DNA of 12,446 bases from a virus (Duplodnaviria; Heunggongvirae; Uroviricota; Caudoviricetes), in the IMG/VR virus record IMGVR_UViG_2875718163_000001, positions 1-12,446 of that record. One strand, written 5' to 3'. Positions 1 to 11,151 of this stretch are shown one piece after another. A program made the position numbers and the translations under genes. Positions within the stretch are counted from its first letter, which is position 1, and the number at the start of each line of letters is the position of its first letter. The notes under the pieces were generated by a model. The model was not told the DNA's origin. It did no database searches and was given only the letters and a program-made list of their open reading frames with translations.

Positions 1-1164
1 TTACGCCTTCTTTATATCCTCCATAATTTCAGAGTGGGACATATTTGGGACATTATCACCAAAAATGTCGTCTATTTTCCTCGCATGCTCTGTCAAATGA
101 TTAGGCGCAAGGTGAGCATACCTACGAACCATTTCTATGGACTCCCATCCGCCCATTTCCTGAAGCACTGATAATGGGACGCCTGACTGAATCAGCCAGC
201 TTGCCCAGGTGTGTCTGAGGTCATGGAAACGGAAATCTTCAATTCCTGCACGACGACAAGCTGATAGCCATGATGTCTTGCTGTCGATGCGCATCTTCCT
301 GACCGCAGGCGTTGATGTTCCATCTGCTCGCTTAGCCGCCTTGGTATGTACAAACACCCATTTGTGATGCTTGCCTATTTGATCACGCAACACTTTACAG
401 GCGGTATCGTTCAGCGCCACACCAATGGCGCGGTTTGATTTGCTCTCTTCTGGATTCACCCAGGCAACTCGTCGCTGCATGTCGATTTGTTGCCATTCCA
501 GATTTATGATGTTCGACTTTCTCAGACCAGTTGCCAGCGCAAACTTGACGACAGATTTCAGTGGTTCGGGGCACTCATCAATAAGGCGTTTTGCTTCCTC
601 CTTTTCCAGCCATCTGACTCGCTTGTTTCTGACCGCTGGTATCTTGATGACAGGCGCTTTTTCCAGCCACTTCCAGTCGCGTTCTGCAGCACGGAGAATG
701 GCCTTTATCATGGCAAGATGCTTTGCCTTTGTCTGAGTTGATACTGGCTTTGGTTCATAAACAGGCAGTTCTTTACCTTTCCTGATGGCGGCCTGAACTT
801 TCTGTTTCCATATTTCTTTCGTCTTTCTGTTATGCATTCTGCTTACAGCAGAGTAAATCTTTGCCTCCGAGATATCTTTAAGCCTTATACCCTCAAAATG
901 TTCAAGCCAGAACTCAATCCGGCTTTTATCTGAATCGAGAGATTTTTTATCAGCTTTTTCCTCAAGCCATCTTAGGCAGGCCTCTTCAAAAGTGACATCA
1001 GGTAAATCCCCTAGCTTTTCTACTCGCCAGAGTTCTGCTTTTCGCTTGTCGTGCAACTCCTGAGCTTGCCGTTTGTCCTTTGTGCCAAGAGATTCCTTAA
1101 TTCGTTTCCCGCCCGGGAGCGAATACGAGGCATACCATATTTCATTTCTGCGGAAGAGTGACAT
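1..1164 (-). CDS. intD: Phage-type tyrosine integrase (site-specific recombinase), apparently intact
   Basis: 387-aa minus-strand ORF whose stop is the complement of 1-3. Translation carries the tyrosine-recombinase boxes (...GLRKSN..., ...HDLRHTWAS..., ...VRRYAHL...). N-terminus [14 protein letters not shown]... matches Rac/DLP12-type prophage integrases as I recall them. Symbol assigned from the DLP12-like context. Confidence 0.92.
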
Positions 1165-2390: not shown

Positions 2391-2670
2391 ACCAGCATAA
2401 ATCAGGCTGCGGCTAAAATGGCGCGGGCAGGAATCCTGGTCGTTGATGGTAAGGTCTGGCGAACGGTGTATTACCGGTTCGCTACCAGAGAAGAATGGGA
2501 AGGAAAGGTGAGCACGAATCTGATTTTTAAGGAGTGTCGCCAGAGTGCCGCGATGAAACGGGTATTGAGGGTATATAAAAGAACATCAATGGGAACACAA
2601 TGATGAAACAGGTGAGTTGAGTTCAAACTGTAGTACAATTCTCTCCAGTTTGAACAGGAAAGAATATGCT

Positions 2671-3003
2671 ATGAACCCTTATATTTATCTTGGTGGTGCA
2701 ATACTTGCAGAGGTCATTGGTACAACCTTAATGAAGTTTTCAGAAGGTTTTACACGGTTATGGCCATCTGTTGGTACAATTATTTGTTATTGTGCATCAT
2801 TCTGGTTATTAGCTCAGACGCTGGCTTATATTCCTACAGGGATTGCTTATGCTATCTGGTCAGGAGTCGGTATTGTCCTGATTAGCTTACTGTCATGGGG
2901 ATTTTTCGGCCAACGGCTGGACCTGCCAGCCATTATAGGCATGATGTTGATTTGTGCCGGTGTGTTGATTATTAATTTATTGTCACGAAGCACACCACAT
3001 TAA
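2671..3003 (+). CDS. emrE: Small multidrug resistance (SMR) efflux transporter EmrE
   Basis: 110-aa ORF MNPYIYLGGAILAEVIGTTLMKFSEGFTRLWPSVGTIICYCASFWLLAQTLAYIPTGIAYAIWSGVGIVLISLLSWGFFGQRLDLPAIIGMMLICAGVLIINLLSRSTPH, recognised as EmrE. Four hydrophobic helices with the conserved membrane Glu (..LAEVIG..). AGGA 12 nt upstream of ATG 2671; the track ORF from 2617 is an upstream extension. Confidence 0.93.
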   Translation: MNPYIYLGGAILAEVIGTTLMKFSEGFTRLWPSVGTIICYCASFWLLAQTLAYIPTGIAYAIWSGVGIVLISLLSWGFFGQRLDLPAIIGMMLICAGVLIINLLSRSTPH

Positions 3004-3033
3004 AATAATTTGTTTCTAAACGACTAAAATATG

Positions 3034-3074
3034 GAGGCTCTTATATTTATATGAGCCTCGTTTTATGCTTTTTG
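3034..3074 (+). terminator. Probable intrinsic terminator after emrE
   Basis: GAGGCTC (3034-3040) / GAGCCTC (3053-3059) perfect 7-bp stem with a 12-nt loop, followed by GTTTTATGCTTTTTG, 30 nt after the emrE stop. Confidence 0.5.
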
Positions 3075-3257
3075 TTAATGTCTTTATTTTTTATGTATTC
3101 TTTTGTGCTTTCAAGATTATGGCGTAAGAAAATTGCAATACGATTATTGTTGTATATTCAAGATAATGTGACCTTAATTGTCTTTTTAAATAAAAAATAA
3201 ACAAAAATTATATCCCACCACTAAGGTTTATAAAAGCATACGTTAGCAGGTGTCACC

Positions 3258-4784
3258 ATGAAAAAAGCCATAGCATATATGCGATTTTCATCACCAGGTC
3301 AGATGTCTGGCGACTCATTAAACCGACAGAGAAGACTTATTGCTGAATGGTTAAAGGTAAATAGTGATTATTATCTTGATACCATAACATATGAAGATTT
3401 AGGATTAAGTGCATTCAAAGGAAAGCATGCACAATCAGGAGCTTTTTCGGAATTTTTAGATGCTATAGAGCATGGTTATATATTGCCAGGAACTACATTG
3501 TTAGTTGAAAGTCTGGACAGACTTTCAAGAGAAAAAGTCGGTGAAGCGATTGAACGTCTGAAATTGATTTTGAATCACGGTATTGATGTTATAACTCTTT
3601 GCGACAATACAGTCTATAATATTGACTCTTTGAATGAGCCATATTCATTAATAAAAGCCATACTTATAGCACAAAGGGCAAATGAAGAAAGCGAGATAAA
3701 GTCAAGTCGGGTTAAATTATCATGGAAGAAAAAACGGCAGGATGCACTGGAATCAGGTACGATTATGACGGCGTCTTGTCCGAGATGGCTCTCCTTAGAT
3801 GACAAAAGAACGGCTTTTGTTCCAGACCCCGACAGGGTGAAAACTATTGAGCTAATTTTTAAACTCAGGATGGAAAGGCGCTCATTGAATGCAATAGCCA
3901 AGTATTTAAATGATCATGCTGTAAAGAATTTCTCAGGAAAAGAAAGTGCATGGGGACCTTCTGTAATTGAAAAATTATTAGCGAATAAAGCTCTGATAGG
4001 TATTTGCGTACCTTCATATCGTGCAAGAGGGAAAGGGATAAGTGAAATCGCTGGCTATTATCCCAGAGTCATATCAGATGATTTGTTTTACGCTGTACAG
4101 GAAATTCGGTTGGCACCTTTTGGTATTAGCAATAGTAGCAAGAATCCTATGCTAATAAATCTACTTCGAACAGTTATGAAGTGTGAGGCTTGTGGTAATA
4201 CCATGATTGTTCATGCGGTATCTGGAAGTTTGCATGGCTATTATGTTTGTCCGATGAGAAGATTACATCGATGTGACAGGCCATCAATAAAAAGAGATTT
4301 GGTTGATTATAATATCATTAATGAATTGCTTTTTAATTGTAGCAAAATTCAACCAGTTGAAAACAAGAAAGATGCTAATGAAACTTTAGAGTTAAAAATT
4401 ATTGAGCTTCAGATGAAAATTAATAATTTAATCGTTGCATTGTCTGTCGCGCCTGAAGTTACCGCTATAGCAGAGAAAATAAGACTATTAGATAAGGAAT
4501 TACGAAGGGCTTCGGTATCATTGAAAACTTTGAAGAGTAAAGGTGTAAATTCATTCAGTGATTTTTATGCTATTGACTTAACCAGTAAAAATGGACGAGA
4601 GTTATGCCGTACACTTGCCTATAAAACATTCGAAAAAATCATAATTAATACGGATAATAAAACCTGTGATATCTATTTTATGAATGGCATTGTTTTTAAA
4701 CACTATCCTTTAATGAAAGTAATATCCGCCCAGCAGGCGATAAGTGCTCTCAAATATATGGTTGATGGTGAGATTTATTTCTAA
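3258..4784 (+). CDS. ybcK: Large serine recombinase (resolvase catalytic domain + recombinase domain + zinc ribbon + coiled-coil tail)
   Basis: 508-aa ORF. N-terminal AIAYMRFSSPGQ (nucleophilic Ser context) and ..VESLDRLSR.. resolvase motifs; Cys cluster CEACGN...C..C..HRC; C-terminal Leu/Ile-rich heptad-like stretch. Visibly AT-rich codon usage unlike flanking phage genes. AGGTG 6 nt upstream of ATG. Confidence 0.9.
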   Translation: MKKAIAYMRFSSPGQMSGDSLNRQRRLIAEWLKVNSDYYLDTITYEDLGLSAFKGKHAQSGAFSEFLDAIEHGYILPGTTLLVESLDRLSREKVGEAIERLKLILNHGIDVITLCDNTVYNIDSLNEPYSLIKAILIAQRANEESEIKSSRVKLSWKKKRQDALESGTIMTASCPRWLSLDDKRTAFVPDPDRVKTIELIFKLRMERRSLNAIAKYLNDHAVKNFSGKESAWGPSVIEKLLANKALIGICVPSYRARGKGISEIAGYYPRVISDDLFYAVQEIRLAPFGISNSSKNPMLINLLRTVMKCEACGNTMIVHAVSGSLHGYYVCPMRRLHRCDRPSIKRDLVDYNIINELLFNCSKIQPVENKKDANETLELKIIELQMKINNLIVALSVAPEVTAIAEKIRLLDKELRRASVSLKTLKSKGVNSFSDFYAIDLTSKNGRELCRTLAYKTFEKIIINTDNKTCDIYFMNGIVFKHYPLMKVISAQQAISALKYMVDGEIYF

Positions 4785-4982
4785 ATAATGATCTCGGATT
4801 TTAAGTTATGCTATGGTGATAAAGTGCAAGACAGAATTAATTATCTTTGACGAAACTTAATGGGTAATTACTTTGTTTGCTCCCACAAGCGAGTTTTGTA
4901 CGGCTGTATTGGGGTAGTAAATGAGCTATACAATCTTAATCATTTGTTAGGTGAGAACTCTTGGTCGCAGATTCAAATACTG

Positions 4983-5032
4983 AAAATACGTGACAAATTA
5001 TTATGAGCAAAATGGTGTATGTCACGTATTTT
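4983..5032. repeat. Perfect 13-bp inverted repeat with 24-bp spacer (AAAATACGTGACA / TGTCACGTATTTT)
   Basis: Arms at 4983-4995 and 5020-5032 are exact reverse complements; read directly from the sequence. Lies ~200 bp downstream of ybcK and ~215 bp upstream of ybcL. Confidence 0.85.
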
Positions 5033-5248
5033 GAATGGTAGGTTAAAAAATAACACCGACTTTCGTAGGTGTTACTAATAATAAAGCAGAGTTTTTAGAT
5101 AGTATCAATGTGCTTTGTGTATATTGTGGCAAATAATTGGGTTGGGGGTACAATTGTGATTGCTTTTGCATGAACATTGCGCCTTTATGCATAATGAGAT
5201 AAAGGAATATCAAATAAAATAACGATAGGTCATAACAAAGAGGTTTTT

Positions 5249-5800
5249 ATGAAAACACTTATCGTTTCAACTGTATTGGCATTCATAACATTTTCTGCGC
5301 AGGCTGCAGCATTTCAGGTCACTAGTAATGAAATAAAAACAGGAGAGCAACTTACAACGTCTCATGTCTTTTCTGGATTTGGGTGTGAAGGTGGTAATAC
5401 ATCGCCCTCATTAACCTGGTCTGGTGTTCCTGAAGGTACCAAAAGCTTTGCCGTAACTGTATATGATCCAGATGCACCTACAGGCAGTGGTTGGTGGCAT
5501 TGGACTGTTGTTAATATTCCAGCAACAGTAACATATTTGCCCGTTGATGCAGGGAGACGTGATGGAACAAAACTGCCGACTGGTGCTGTTCAAGGCCGAA
5601 ATGATTTTGGCTATGCTGGGTTTGGTGGCGCATGTCCTCCTAAAGGAGATAAACCACATCATTACCAGTTTAAAGTATGGGCTCTAAAAACTGAAAAGAT
5701 TCCTGTAGATTCTAACTCCAGCGGAGCGTTAGTTGGTTATATGCTTAATGCTAATAAAATCGCAACCGCTGAGATAACACCAGTTTATGAGATAAAGTAG
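5249..5800 (+). CDS. ybcL: Periplasmic PEBP/RKIP-family protein (phosphatidylethanolamine-binding protein homologue)
   Basis: 183-aa ORF with signal peptide MKTLIVSTVLAFITFSAQA and PEBP signature VYDPDAPTGSGWWHWTVVNIP...GYAGFGGACPP..HHY. GAGG 5 nt upstream of ATG. Confidence 0.9.
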   Translation: MKTLIVSTVLAFITFSAQAAAFQVTSNEIKTGEQLTTSHVFSGFGCEGGNTSPSLTWSGVPEGTKSFAVTVYDPDAPTGSGWWHWTVVNIPATVTYLPVDAGRRDGTKLPTGAVQGRNDFGYAGFGGACPPKGDKPHHYQFKVWALKTEKIPVDSNSSGALVGYMLNANKIATAEITPVYEIK

Positions 5801-5809
5801 GGTGAGAGT

Positions 5810-6607
5810 ATGCTGGCAAGAGGTAAGACTAACTTAAAGATCGAAGAAATACGGATGCATAAACATCATGAGATTCATAGGGTTAAGCCTCTTATGCCAG
5901 CTTTGTGTCGTATCCGTCAGGGAAAGAAAGTTATCAATTGGGAGACGCATACTTTAACTGTTGATAATAATCAAATAATATTATTTCCTTGTGGTTATGA
6001 ATTTTATATTGAGAATTATCCTGAAGCAGGGCTTTATCTTGCAGAAATGCTTTACTTACCCATTGATTTAATTGAGAGTTTCCAAAAACTTTATACGGTA
6101 ACTGATCAAATACGTAACAAAACAAGTTTCTTTTTACCTCAGAATCCTGAGTTAATATATTGTTGGGAGCAACTAAAAACATCTGTTTCCCGAGGCTTCT
6201 CAACTAAAATTCAGGAGCACTTAGCAATGGGCGTTCTACTTTCGTTAGGAGTGAATCATGTTAATCATTTACTTTTATCATATAGTAAACAATCATTGAT
6301 AAGTCGTTGTTATAACCTGCTGCTATCCGAACCCGGCACAAAATGGACAGCAAACAAGGTTGCTCGATATCTCTACATTTCTGTTTCTACATTACATCGC
6401 CGTCTAGCAAGCGAGGGGGTAAGTTTCCAAAGTATACTGGACGATGTGAGGTTAAATAATGCGTTGTCTGCTATACAAACGACGGTAAAACCTATAAGCG
6501 AGATTGCCAGAGAAAATGGTTATAAGTGTCCTTCTCGTTTTACTGAAAGATTTCATAATCGTTTTAATATAACACCAAGAGAGATAAGAAAAGCTTCCAG
6601 AGAGTAA
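5810..6607 (+). CDS. ybcM: AraC/XylS-family transcriptional regulator
   Basis: 265-aa ORF with C-terminal double-HTH AraC domain (..[44 protein letters not shown]...[25 protein letters not shown]). Starts 9 nt after the ybcL stop, so probably co-transcribed. Confidence 0.88.
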
Positions 6608-6671
6608 AAGTGTTTTAAGAAGGAGCAATTCTATCGATTTTGATTTTGGGAAATCAACACGGCATAATTAT

Positions 6672-6700
6672 GTCACCGGAGCCTGAACAACTCCGGTGAC
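6672..6700 (+). terminator. Strong hairpin (10-bp perfect stem GTCACCGGAG / CTCCGGTGAC, 9-nt loop); possible terminator or boundary element
   Basis: Read directly. Lies 65 nt after the ybcM stop and ~120 nt before the NinB-like gene, where lambda places tR2. The trailing sequence TTCTGCGCT is only weakly U-rich, so the intrinsic-terminator call is uncertain. Confidence 0.4.
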
Positions 6701-6723
6701 TTCTGCGCTAAACGGGGACGTTT

Positions 6724-6825
6724 ATGCGCACATACAATCCAAACTCTCTTCTCCCTTCACAGATGCAGAAATGCACCTGCAATTCTTTGCATCTAGCGTT
6801 TGACCTCTGCGGAGGGGAAGCGTGA
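6724..6825 (+). CDS. ylcH: Small ORF (33 aa) immediately upstream of and overlapping ybcN start
   Basis: ATG 6724 ... TGA 6823-6825 encodes [33 protein letters not shown]; its stop overlaps the ybcN GTG (GTGA). Matches the size and position I recall for ylcH; no independent coding support. Confidence 0.3.
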
Positions 6826-9395: not shown

Positions 9396-10113
9396 CAGGC
9401 TGCGGCATTTTGTCCGCGCCGGGCTTCGCTCACTGTTCAGGCCGGAGCCACAGACCGCCGTTGAATGGGCGGATGCTAATTACTATCTCCCGAAAGAATC
9501 CGCATACCAGGAAGGGCGCTGGGAAACACTGCCCTTTCAGCGGGCCATCATGAATGCGATGGGCAGCGACTACATCCGTGAGGTGAATGTGGTGAAGTCT
9601 GCCCGTGTCGGTTATTCCAAAATGCTGCTGGGTGTTTATGCCTACTTTATAGAGCATAAGCAGCGCAACACCCTTATTCCAGCTGGCTTCGTGGCTGTTT
9701 TCAACAGTGATGAGTCATCGTGGCATCTCGTTGAAGATCATCGGGGTAAAACGGTTTATGACGTGGCTTCCGGCAACGCGTTATTTATTTCTGAACTCGG
9801 TCCGTTACCGGAAAATGTTACCTGGTTATCGCCGGAAGGGGAGTTTCAGAAGTGGAACGGTACAGCCTGGGTGAAAGATGCAGAAGCAGAAAAACTGTTC
9901 CGGATTCGGGAGGCGGAAGAAACAAAAAACAGCCTGATGCAGGTAGCCAGTGAGCATATTGCGCCACTTCAGGATGCTGTAGATCTGGAAATCGCAACGG
10001 AGGAAGAAACCTCATTGCTGGAAGCCTGGAAAAAATATCGGGTGTTGCTGAACCGTGTTGATACATCAACTGCACCTGATATTGAGTGGCCTACGAACCC
10101 TGTCAGGGAGTAA
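9370..10113 (+). pseudogene. tfaD: Chimeric ORF: terminase large subunit A N-terminus (~103 aa) fused in frame to the C-terminal ~145 aa of a tail-fibre assembly protein (Tfa)
   Basis: [33 protein letters not shown]...[12 protein letters not shown] is lambda gpA as I recall it. From [29 protein letters not shown]... to ...[13 protein letters not shown] is Tfa family. Junction at about 9678/9679. Confidence 0.8.
9949..10089 (+). repeat. Direct repeat copy 1 (~141 bp, Tfa C-terminal coding segment)
   Basis: AGTGAGCATATTGCGCCACTTCAGGATGCTGTAGATCTGGAAATCGCAACGGAGGAAGAA... recurs at 10996-11136 with scattered substitutions. Confidence 0.8.
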
Positions 10114-10890: not shown

Positions 10891-11151
10891 ATGCTGCCGC
10901 AGCATAGCGATATTGAAATAGCCTGGTATGCTTCAATACAGCAGGAGCCGAATGGCTGGAAGACCGTCACCACACAGTTCTACATCCAGGAATTCAGTGA
11001 GTATATTGCGCCACTGCAGGATGCTGTAGATCTGGAAATCGCAACGGAGGAAGAAAGATCGTTGCTGGAAGCCTGAAAAAAGTATCGGGTGCTGCTAAAC
11101 CGTGTGGACACTTCCGTAGCACCAGATATCGAGTGGCTTATTCAACCATAA
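10891..11151 (+). pseudogene. tfaX: Tail-fibre assembly (Tfa)-like gene with in-frame premature stop
   Basis: [64 protein letters not shown](11074-11076)[24 protein letters not shown]. The stop sits where copy 1 has TGG (Trp in ..LEAWKKY..). AAGGGG upstream of the ATG. Confidence 0.7.
10996..11136 (+). repeat. Direct repeat copy 2 (~141 bp, Tfa C-terminal coding segment)
   Basis: See copy 1 (9949-10089). Carries the TGG->TGA difference at 11074-11076. Confidence 0.8.

Follow-up and report, generated by a model that had tools for sequence, protein, structure and literature searches.

The nin region of phage lambda contains the terminators tR2-tR4, and morons typically bring their own promoter and terminator. 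These are among the closest described counterparts of an inverted repeat and an adjacent second hairpin (hairpin 2) that we have analysed in a lambdoid prophage of Escherichia coli, between ybcK, the gene of a large serine recombinase, and the genes ybcL-ybcM. The repeat resembles tR2-tR4 and the two-way intrinsic terminators of E. coli in that complementary tracts of A and U flank its hairpin, so that both strands read as a stem followed by a U-run. It also shares with the lambda nin terminators its position at a module boundary between ren and Q of a lambdoid genome. It departs from both in its stem, which is rich in A and U, in its short U-tract and in its loop, which is far above the usual 3-8 nt.

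The surroundings of the repeat are reminiscent of lambdoid moron cassettes, in that ybcL-ybcM has its own promoter and regulator, the content of the slot varies among prophages and the hairpins sit at the upstream edge of the cargo. In moron boundary elements, however, the expected place is downstream of the moron, whereas here the hairpins are upstream of it, and an island adjacent to fliE carries the moron without them. A further parallel is offered by the lambda sib/tI retroregulator, which is likewise a stem-loop a few hundred nucleotides downstream of a phage recombinase gene (int in lambda, ybcK here). By analogy with sib/tI, termination at the repeat would leave the transcript with a shorter helix, whereas read-through would give one of 15 bp with one mismatch, extended by a 6-bp inner helix, that could be a substrate for RNase III. 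The repeat differs from sib/tI in having neither an RNase III site nor sequence similarity, and the likeness in the control of ybcK is an analogy only.

Geometry, folding and strand preference of the two structures

The window, that is, the whole stretch of 12,446 nt analysed here, is the left portion of an E. coli DLP12-type lambdoid prophage. It comprises intD (1-1164, minus strand), remnants of exo, P and ren, emrE (2672-3003), ylcJ (3051-3200), ybcK (3258-4784, plus strand), ybcL (5249-5800) and ybcM (5810-6607), downstream of which follow, in that order, ylcH-ybcN-ninE-ybcO-rusA-ylcG-quuD. In the region of the repeat, a window position x corresponds to position x + 565,644 of NC_000913.3. 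The IS3 copy within ren (1961-2389) shows, relative to K-12 MG1655, an 830-bp internal deletion with its joint at 2191/2192, and the InsE-InsF fusion ORF at 2019-2360 is the product of this deletion. The match between the window and MG1655 ends after 9145, near an annotated IS5 of MG1655. Rfam IS009 (RF02111) matches at 9872-10070 with 227.8 bits, which exceeds the gathering score, and a second match at 10914-11117 falls just under it (110 vs 117).

The repeat begins 199 bp past the ybcK stop codon. Its arms, AAAATACGTGACA at 4983-4995 and TGTCACGTATTTT at 5020-5032, are each 13 nt long, 100% complementary and separated by 24 nt, as a previous sequence-only reading of this DNA had described; if one mismatch is allowed they extend to 15 nt (4981-4995 and 5020-5034), as seen on the identical locus L003. 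The left arm consists of an outer AAAAT, which is the A-tract, and of the stem core ACGTGACA, and the right arm carries an outer ATTTT, which becomes the U-tract of plus-strand RNA and is followed by GAAT. The 24-bp spacer (4996-5019) lacks dyad symmetry. The earlier judgement that such a repeat is improbable by chance is borne out by simulation, since, when the 464-bp intergenic region was shuffled 2000 times with its dinucleotides preserved, a perfect inverted repeat of at least 13 nt with a spacer of 3-40 nt arose only twice (P ~0.001). The repeat is also the longest perfect inverted repeat of the entire 12.4-kb window. Among the second-longest class of perfect repeats is a 10-bp one at 2621-2655, GTTCAAACTG-N15-CAGTTTGAAC, which flanks a TACAAT hexamer just upstream of emrE and could be an emrE operator or leader hairpin. 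Hairpin 2, also noted previously, was recovered as TAACACC (5051-5057), 10 nt and GGTGTTA (5068-5074). The repeat and hairpin 2 are real and non-random. To our knowledge, the arms fit none of the resolvase half-sites, CRP, PhoB, attC or REP elements in spacing or orientation.

The region 4970-5090, for which RNA folding had been recommended, folds with a z-score of -3.5 as plus-strand RNA and of -4.6 as minus-strand RNA. For the repeat itself, the predicted energies are -18.7 kcal/mol (z -4.2) on the plus strand and -14.9 kcal/mol (z -5.6) on the minus strand. The spacer is organized differently in the two RNAs: on the plus strand, 4999-5004 pairs weakly with 5012-5017 through A-U and G·U pairs only, closing a 7-nt loop, and on the minus strand it forms an open 24-nt loop.

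Hairpin 2 had been presented as strand-neutral, but it is convincing on the minus strand alone. Read in this direction, 5045-5076 is shaped like an intrinsic terminator pointing leftward, with a 9-bp stem (5076-5068 paired with 5057-5049), an inner 2-bp step and a GAAA loop. The run UUUUUU follows directly, originating from the plus-strand A run at 5045-5050, and two of its U's belong to the stem. On the plus strand, the hairpin is followed by CUAAUAAUAAAG. The K-12 allele folds with -8.9 kcal/mol (z -3.0) on the plus strand and -11.7 kcal/mol (z -3.8) on the minus strand. A common natural variant, G5071A, is present in all six sampled non-window sequences, including a phage and an O157 strain; it introduces a C·A mismatch in plus-strand RNA and a G·U pair in minus-strand RNA, and the corresponding values are -2.7 kcal/mol (z -0.1) and -9.8 kcal/mol (z -2.8). 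Since G5071A spares the minus-strand fold only and the six U's are on the minus strand, hairpin 2 is meaningful, if at all, in the leftward direction.

The intergenic segment, its mosaic joints and the control region of ybcL

RefSeq E. coli genomes carry no annotated feature in the ybcK-ybcL intergenic region (4785-5248, 464 bp). A known RNA family was rejected, as Rfam 15 gives no covariance-model match within 4785-5248 at E <=1. One phage record annotates a 48-aa hypothetical ORF at 4860-5006, whose stop falls within the repeat spacer. This plus-strand ORF and the small minus-strand ORFs of the surrounding segment have no relatives in PHROG or by tblastn, on which ground a coding role of the segment was rejected as well, and by eye they lack a Shine-Dalgarno sequence. 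One of the small ORFs encodes a hydrophobic peptide of 29 aa with a superficial likeness to type I toxins. An alternative pairing of 4934-4952 with 4988-5006 (19 nt, 79% complementary) could compete with the left arm; together with the stop of the 48-aa ORF in the repeat loop it would permit an attenuator-like switch, which nothing supports.

The repeat and hairpin 2 are contained in a DLP12-specific non-coding segment of 268 bp (4826-5093). Copies of it occur in 675 of 5,426 E. coli genomes, exclusively in DLP12-type lambdoid prophages and always between ybcK and ybcL, and also in three sequenced, apparently complete phage genomes. All copies are at least 98% identical. The 64 nt around the repeat are unchanged in 670 of the 675 genomes, and those around hairpin 2 are unlike K-12 in 342. 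No diverged homologue of the segment was found in E. coli genomes, phages, plasmids or IMG/VR, and 39 of 40 viral-contig matches are the same sequence. The odd match (L109), with a 16-nt spacer, follows an unrelated ORF, has no recombinase in its vicinity and was discarded as probably due to chance.

Comparison with other E. coli loci places mosaic joints at 3005/6, 4825/6, 5093/4 and 6637/8. The block ren-emrE-ylcJ-ybcK is common to many lambdoid prophages up to 4825 and homology returns at 6638; prophages having these two joints include O157:H7 FRIK2455, NCCP15648, 2016C-3878 and AGR4587. The cargo of DLP12 is 4826-6637, the 268-bp non-coding segment followed by ybcL-ybcM. In the same slot, O157:H7 FRIK2455 has 280 bp of non-coding DNA, NCCP15648 and 2016C-3878 have a P22AR C-terminal fragment with a hypothetical gene, and AGR4587 has an alpha/beta hydrolase. 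In the chromosomal island adjacent to fliE (loci L002 and L083), emrE (2595-3005) is joined almost directly to 5094-6814. This island contains ybcL-ybcM and their promoter region, and it lacks ylcJ, ybcK and the 268-bp segment. The resulting emrE-ybcL-ybcM arrangement without the repeat occurs in ~2,627 of the 5,426 complete E. coli genomes. As to ybcK, it is present in 1,423 E. coli genomes, 671 with the segment and ~750 without. Being missing from other ybcK-bearing prophages and from the fliE island alike, the segment is part of neither neighbour's conserved module.

The "empty" arrangement of ETEC1749/HH45 prompted the idea of a ybcK element inserted between emrE and ybcL. This was rejected as a simple story on two grounds: the fliE island has phage backbone at either end (2595-3005 and up to 6814), and other prophages have ylcJ-ybcK without 4826-5093. 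Over ~60 bp past the joint, the island is only ~70% identical to DLP12, against 97-99.5% in its flanks. Since the joint shares only AATAAT and is followed by this divergent stretch, a precise att-like junction is undefinable.

The control region of ybcL (5126-5248, plus strand) is situated outside the repeat and hairpin 2. In a Genomic SELEX study, GTGGCA-17-TACAAT was reported as a sigma-70 promoter within the ybcK-ybcL spacer, and binding of H-NS was noted (PMC3946193); this inferred promoter corresponds to window 5126-5154. In the portion of the Cappable-seq data covered here, the plus-strand transcription start site (TSS) of ybcL is at 570,094 (U00096.2), equivalent to window ~5227, and no plus-strand TSS is listed from window ~3670 to ~5227 (PMC4782308). 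ChIP-exo of YbcM gave one peak, at 570,015-570,048 (U00096.2) with a signal/noise of 357, equivalent to window ~5148-5181 (PMC8464067); we infer the U00096.2 numbering of this table from the location upstream of ybcLM that the paper gives for the site and from the other sites listed. The peak is ~115 bp rightward of the repeat. Both proposed ybcL promoters are at 5126 or beyond, and promoters and TSS are ~95-195 bp downstream of the repeat.

Promoter, TSS and YbcM site are all to the right of 5094, in the part common to the island that lacks the repeat. As the island keeps this control region without the repeat, the repeat is neither the leader of ybcL nor the operator of YbcM. Two of the roles put forward in the sequence-only reading are affected. 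An operator for a regulator of ybcL is unsupported for the only known one, the AraC-family protein YbcM: occupancy is at ~5148-5181 instead, and the site fails to accompany the promoter in the ~2,627 genomes with the ybcL-ybcM promoter and no repeat. The proposal of a long RNA stem-loop survives in one of its two forms. A ybcL leader was rejected, because the TSS at ~5227 in the Cappable-seq data covered is downstream of the repeat, whereas a stem-loop in the ybcK 3' UTR is the best supported of the three suggested roles, in view of the folds on both strands, the A- and U-tract flanks and the position at a module joint.

Terminator-like hairpins at module joints

Based on the above data, we tentatively propose, as the most plausible of the readings considered, that the repeat and hairpin 2 are RNA stem-loops and insulate transcription where, in the nin region (ren to Q), the module emrE-ylcJ-ybcK meets the moron ybcL-ybcM. 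The 13-bp repeat can be described as an 8-bp stem core (ACGUGACA/UGUCACGU) with complementary A and U tracts outside, the A-tract (4983-4986) and the U-tract (5029-5032) being located within the outer 5 bp of the arms. Owing to these complementary tracts, RNA made in either direction would form a hairpin with AUUUU behind it, the arrangement of two-way intrinsic terminators. In the rightward direction, the repeat would end or stabilise transcripts derived from ybcK or PR ~250 nt past the ybcK stop, and would leave ybcLM under its own YbcM-bound promoter. In the leftward direction, hairpin 2, with its stem and U6, and then the repeat would halt antisense transcripts arriving from the ybcL side before they enter ybcK. 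That termination or RNA stabilisation actually occurs at the two structures is our inference.

The stem of the repeat, with 13 perfect base pairs including 5 G-C pairs, corresponds to the stable stem of an intrinsic terminator (~5-14 bp, G/C-containing). Its loop, compared with the usual 3-8 nt, has 24 nt on the minus strand and attains 7 nt on the plus strand only with the help of the weak 6-bp A-U/G·U helix. In plus-strand RNA the stem is followed by AUUUUGAAU, in minus-strand RNA by AUUUUCAGUAUUU, and the four U's can also pair with the A-tract. The long loop, the A/U-rich stem and the short U-tract (AUUUUGAAU) set the repeat apart from canonical terminators. Hairpin 2, on the minus strand, does present a stem-loop followed by a U-run. 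A simple terminator scan flagged neither of them.

Adams 2021 supplementary file 2, the one table of 3' ends covered here and apparently the Rho/bicyclomycin-sensitive set, contains no end at the repeat (PMC7815308). Nor did other published transcript-end and sRNA data, within the parts of the supplements covered, show anything at this site. The same file has a plus-strand 3' end at NC_000913.3 568,940 (window ~3296), 38 nt into ybcK (PMC7815308), which suggests early Rho-dependent termination of ybcK transcripts. The region is bound by H-NS (PMC3946193) and is presumably poorly expressed.

Hairpins are present at other module joints of the window too. One of them (3034-3059), just past emrE and overlapping the start of ylcJ, is followed by GUUUUAUGCUUUUU; it is likely to be the emrE terminator, at the left boundary of the stretch that the fliE island lacks. 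With this hairpin on one side and the repeat and hairpin 2 on the other, the segment missing from the island is bracketed by terminator-like hairpins oriented to block inward transcription. A perfect 10-bp hairpin at 6672-6700, GTCACCGGAG-N9-CTCCGGTGAC (-18.3 kcal/mol), is located in the conserved backbone upstream of ylcH and is kept in all prophage variants, in which only its loop changes. In another ybcK-bearing prophage (L139), a canonical plus-strand terminator is found ~325 nt past ybcK.

Relic, operator and recombination site as alternatives

That the repeat hardly varies may be due to nothing more than the young age of the segment. In one alternative explanation, the two structures have no selected function. 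The segment would then be a relic of earlier cargo or of the 3' end of a leftward gene, with a quasipalindrome perfected by template switching and with hairpin 2 as the orphaned terminator of a lost leftward gene. The segment is indeed confined to a single young lineage with identities of at least 98%, so that conservation carries little information, and it occupies a cargo slot that varies freely between prophages. Its ORFs have no homologues, there is no present-day leftward gene for hairpin 2 to terminate, and Adams 2021 supplementary file 2 and the covered portion of the Cappable-seq data (plus strand) report no transcript ends or starts there. We nonetheless consider a relic rather unlikely: a perfect 13-bp repeat is expected by chance only about once in 1000, its sequence is constant in nearly all of the 675 genomes next to 64 nt that vary in half of them, and the variant of hairpin 2 keeps its pairing on one strand.

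The repeat might also act as DNA rather than RNA, as an operator at which a dimeric or tetrameric repressor of phage or host origin binds the 13-bp half-sites and controls a leftward promoter for RNA antisense to the ybcK 3' end. The best promoter-like match of 4600-5400, a candidate sigma-70 promoter on the minus strand (4997-5025; -35 GTGACA at 5025-5020, 17 bp, -10 AATAAT at 5002-4997; 10/12), is situated inside the repeat, with the -35 in the right arm and the start point in the left arm; half-sites over -35 and +1 represent a classic repressor layout. Promoter-like matches are, however, about as frequent as in shuffled sequence (5 found vs 4.0 expected), and the half-sites are 37 bp apart from centre to centre, or 3.5 helical turns, which places them on opposite faces of the DNA. 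The sole mapped regulator of the region, YbcM, binds elsewhere, and a coherent downstream transcription unit or terminator was not found. Such an operator is thus improbable.

The remaining alternative, already raised from the sequence alone, is a site for the neighbouring recombinase. In its most explicit form, the ~50-bp repeat would be an attP-like site bound by a YbcK dimer, the arms contacting the zinc-ribbon domains and crossover taking place at 5007/5008. YbcK combines the domains Resolvase, Recombinase and Zn_ribbon_recom, the complete architecture of a large serine recombinase, and its PHROG match is family 95 (integrase). Full-length orthologues from Atlantibacter, Yersinia, Pantoea, Ewingella, Citrobacter and others are 40-61% identical. 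The Atlantibacter orthologue (59% identical) is the last gene of its prophage and is separated by 540 bp from the 3' end of ssrA, the tmRNA gene, which indicates that the YbcK family includes real, working prophage integrases. The orthologue contexts in question, L132 5001-7432 and L131 4673-8249, are this Atlantibacter prophage end and the nin region of a metagenome contig. In the latter, the orthologue has an 81-aa fragment of DUF1367 on one side and a full-length DUF1367 gene on the other, which gives the impression of a small recombinase cassette inserted into that gene.

In size and place the repeat is akin to the attP of large serine integrases such as those of phiC31, Bxb1 and A118: it spans 50 bp (13-N24-13), has symmetric outer arms and an asymmetric core, a layout that phiC31 attP resembles, and lies 199 bp from the recombinase gene. 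It differs from them in the absence of a partner site in the window and of recombination footprints, in not being linked to ybcK across genomes and in its central dinucleotide. A search of the window for a second copy of the half-sites, which would have been the partner, yielded matches at the level expected by chance. Each of the 675 copies of the segment is of full length, none is broken at the dyad centre, and the mosaic joints are elsewhere. About half of the ybcK-bearing genomes (~750 of 1,423) do not have the segment, and no related motif or comparable repeat was found alongside the recombinase gene at 23 orthologue loci. The centre of the site, G5007-C5008, is the palindromic dinucleotide GC, which would abolish polarity. 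What stands of this earlier proposal is a 50-bp dyad 199 bp past ybcK; we find no positive support for the repeat as a recombination site of YbcK, and regard that function as improbable. The bolder idea that ybcK and the repeat, as its attP-like site, constitute a working recombination module within lambdoid phages, with the slot downstream as a recombinase-serviced platform for cargo exchange and the whole resembling an integron built on a serine recombinase and housed in the nin region, is highly improbable.

The mosaic map shows that the repeat lies outside both the ybcK and the ybcLM modules, and that a variable cargo slot is situated directly downstream of a phage serine recombinase. If the repeat and hairpin 2 do insulate transcription, two unannotated terminator/insulator hairpins would be added to the E. 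coli K-12 map. They would be useful for annotation and for the engineering of DLP12, and would represent an unsurprising, well-known kind of element. Insulation at this joint would also explain why H-NS-silenced ybcK and the YbcM-controlled stress/virulence moron ybcLM are separate transcription units.
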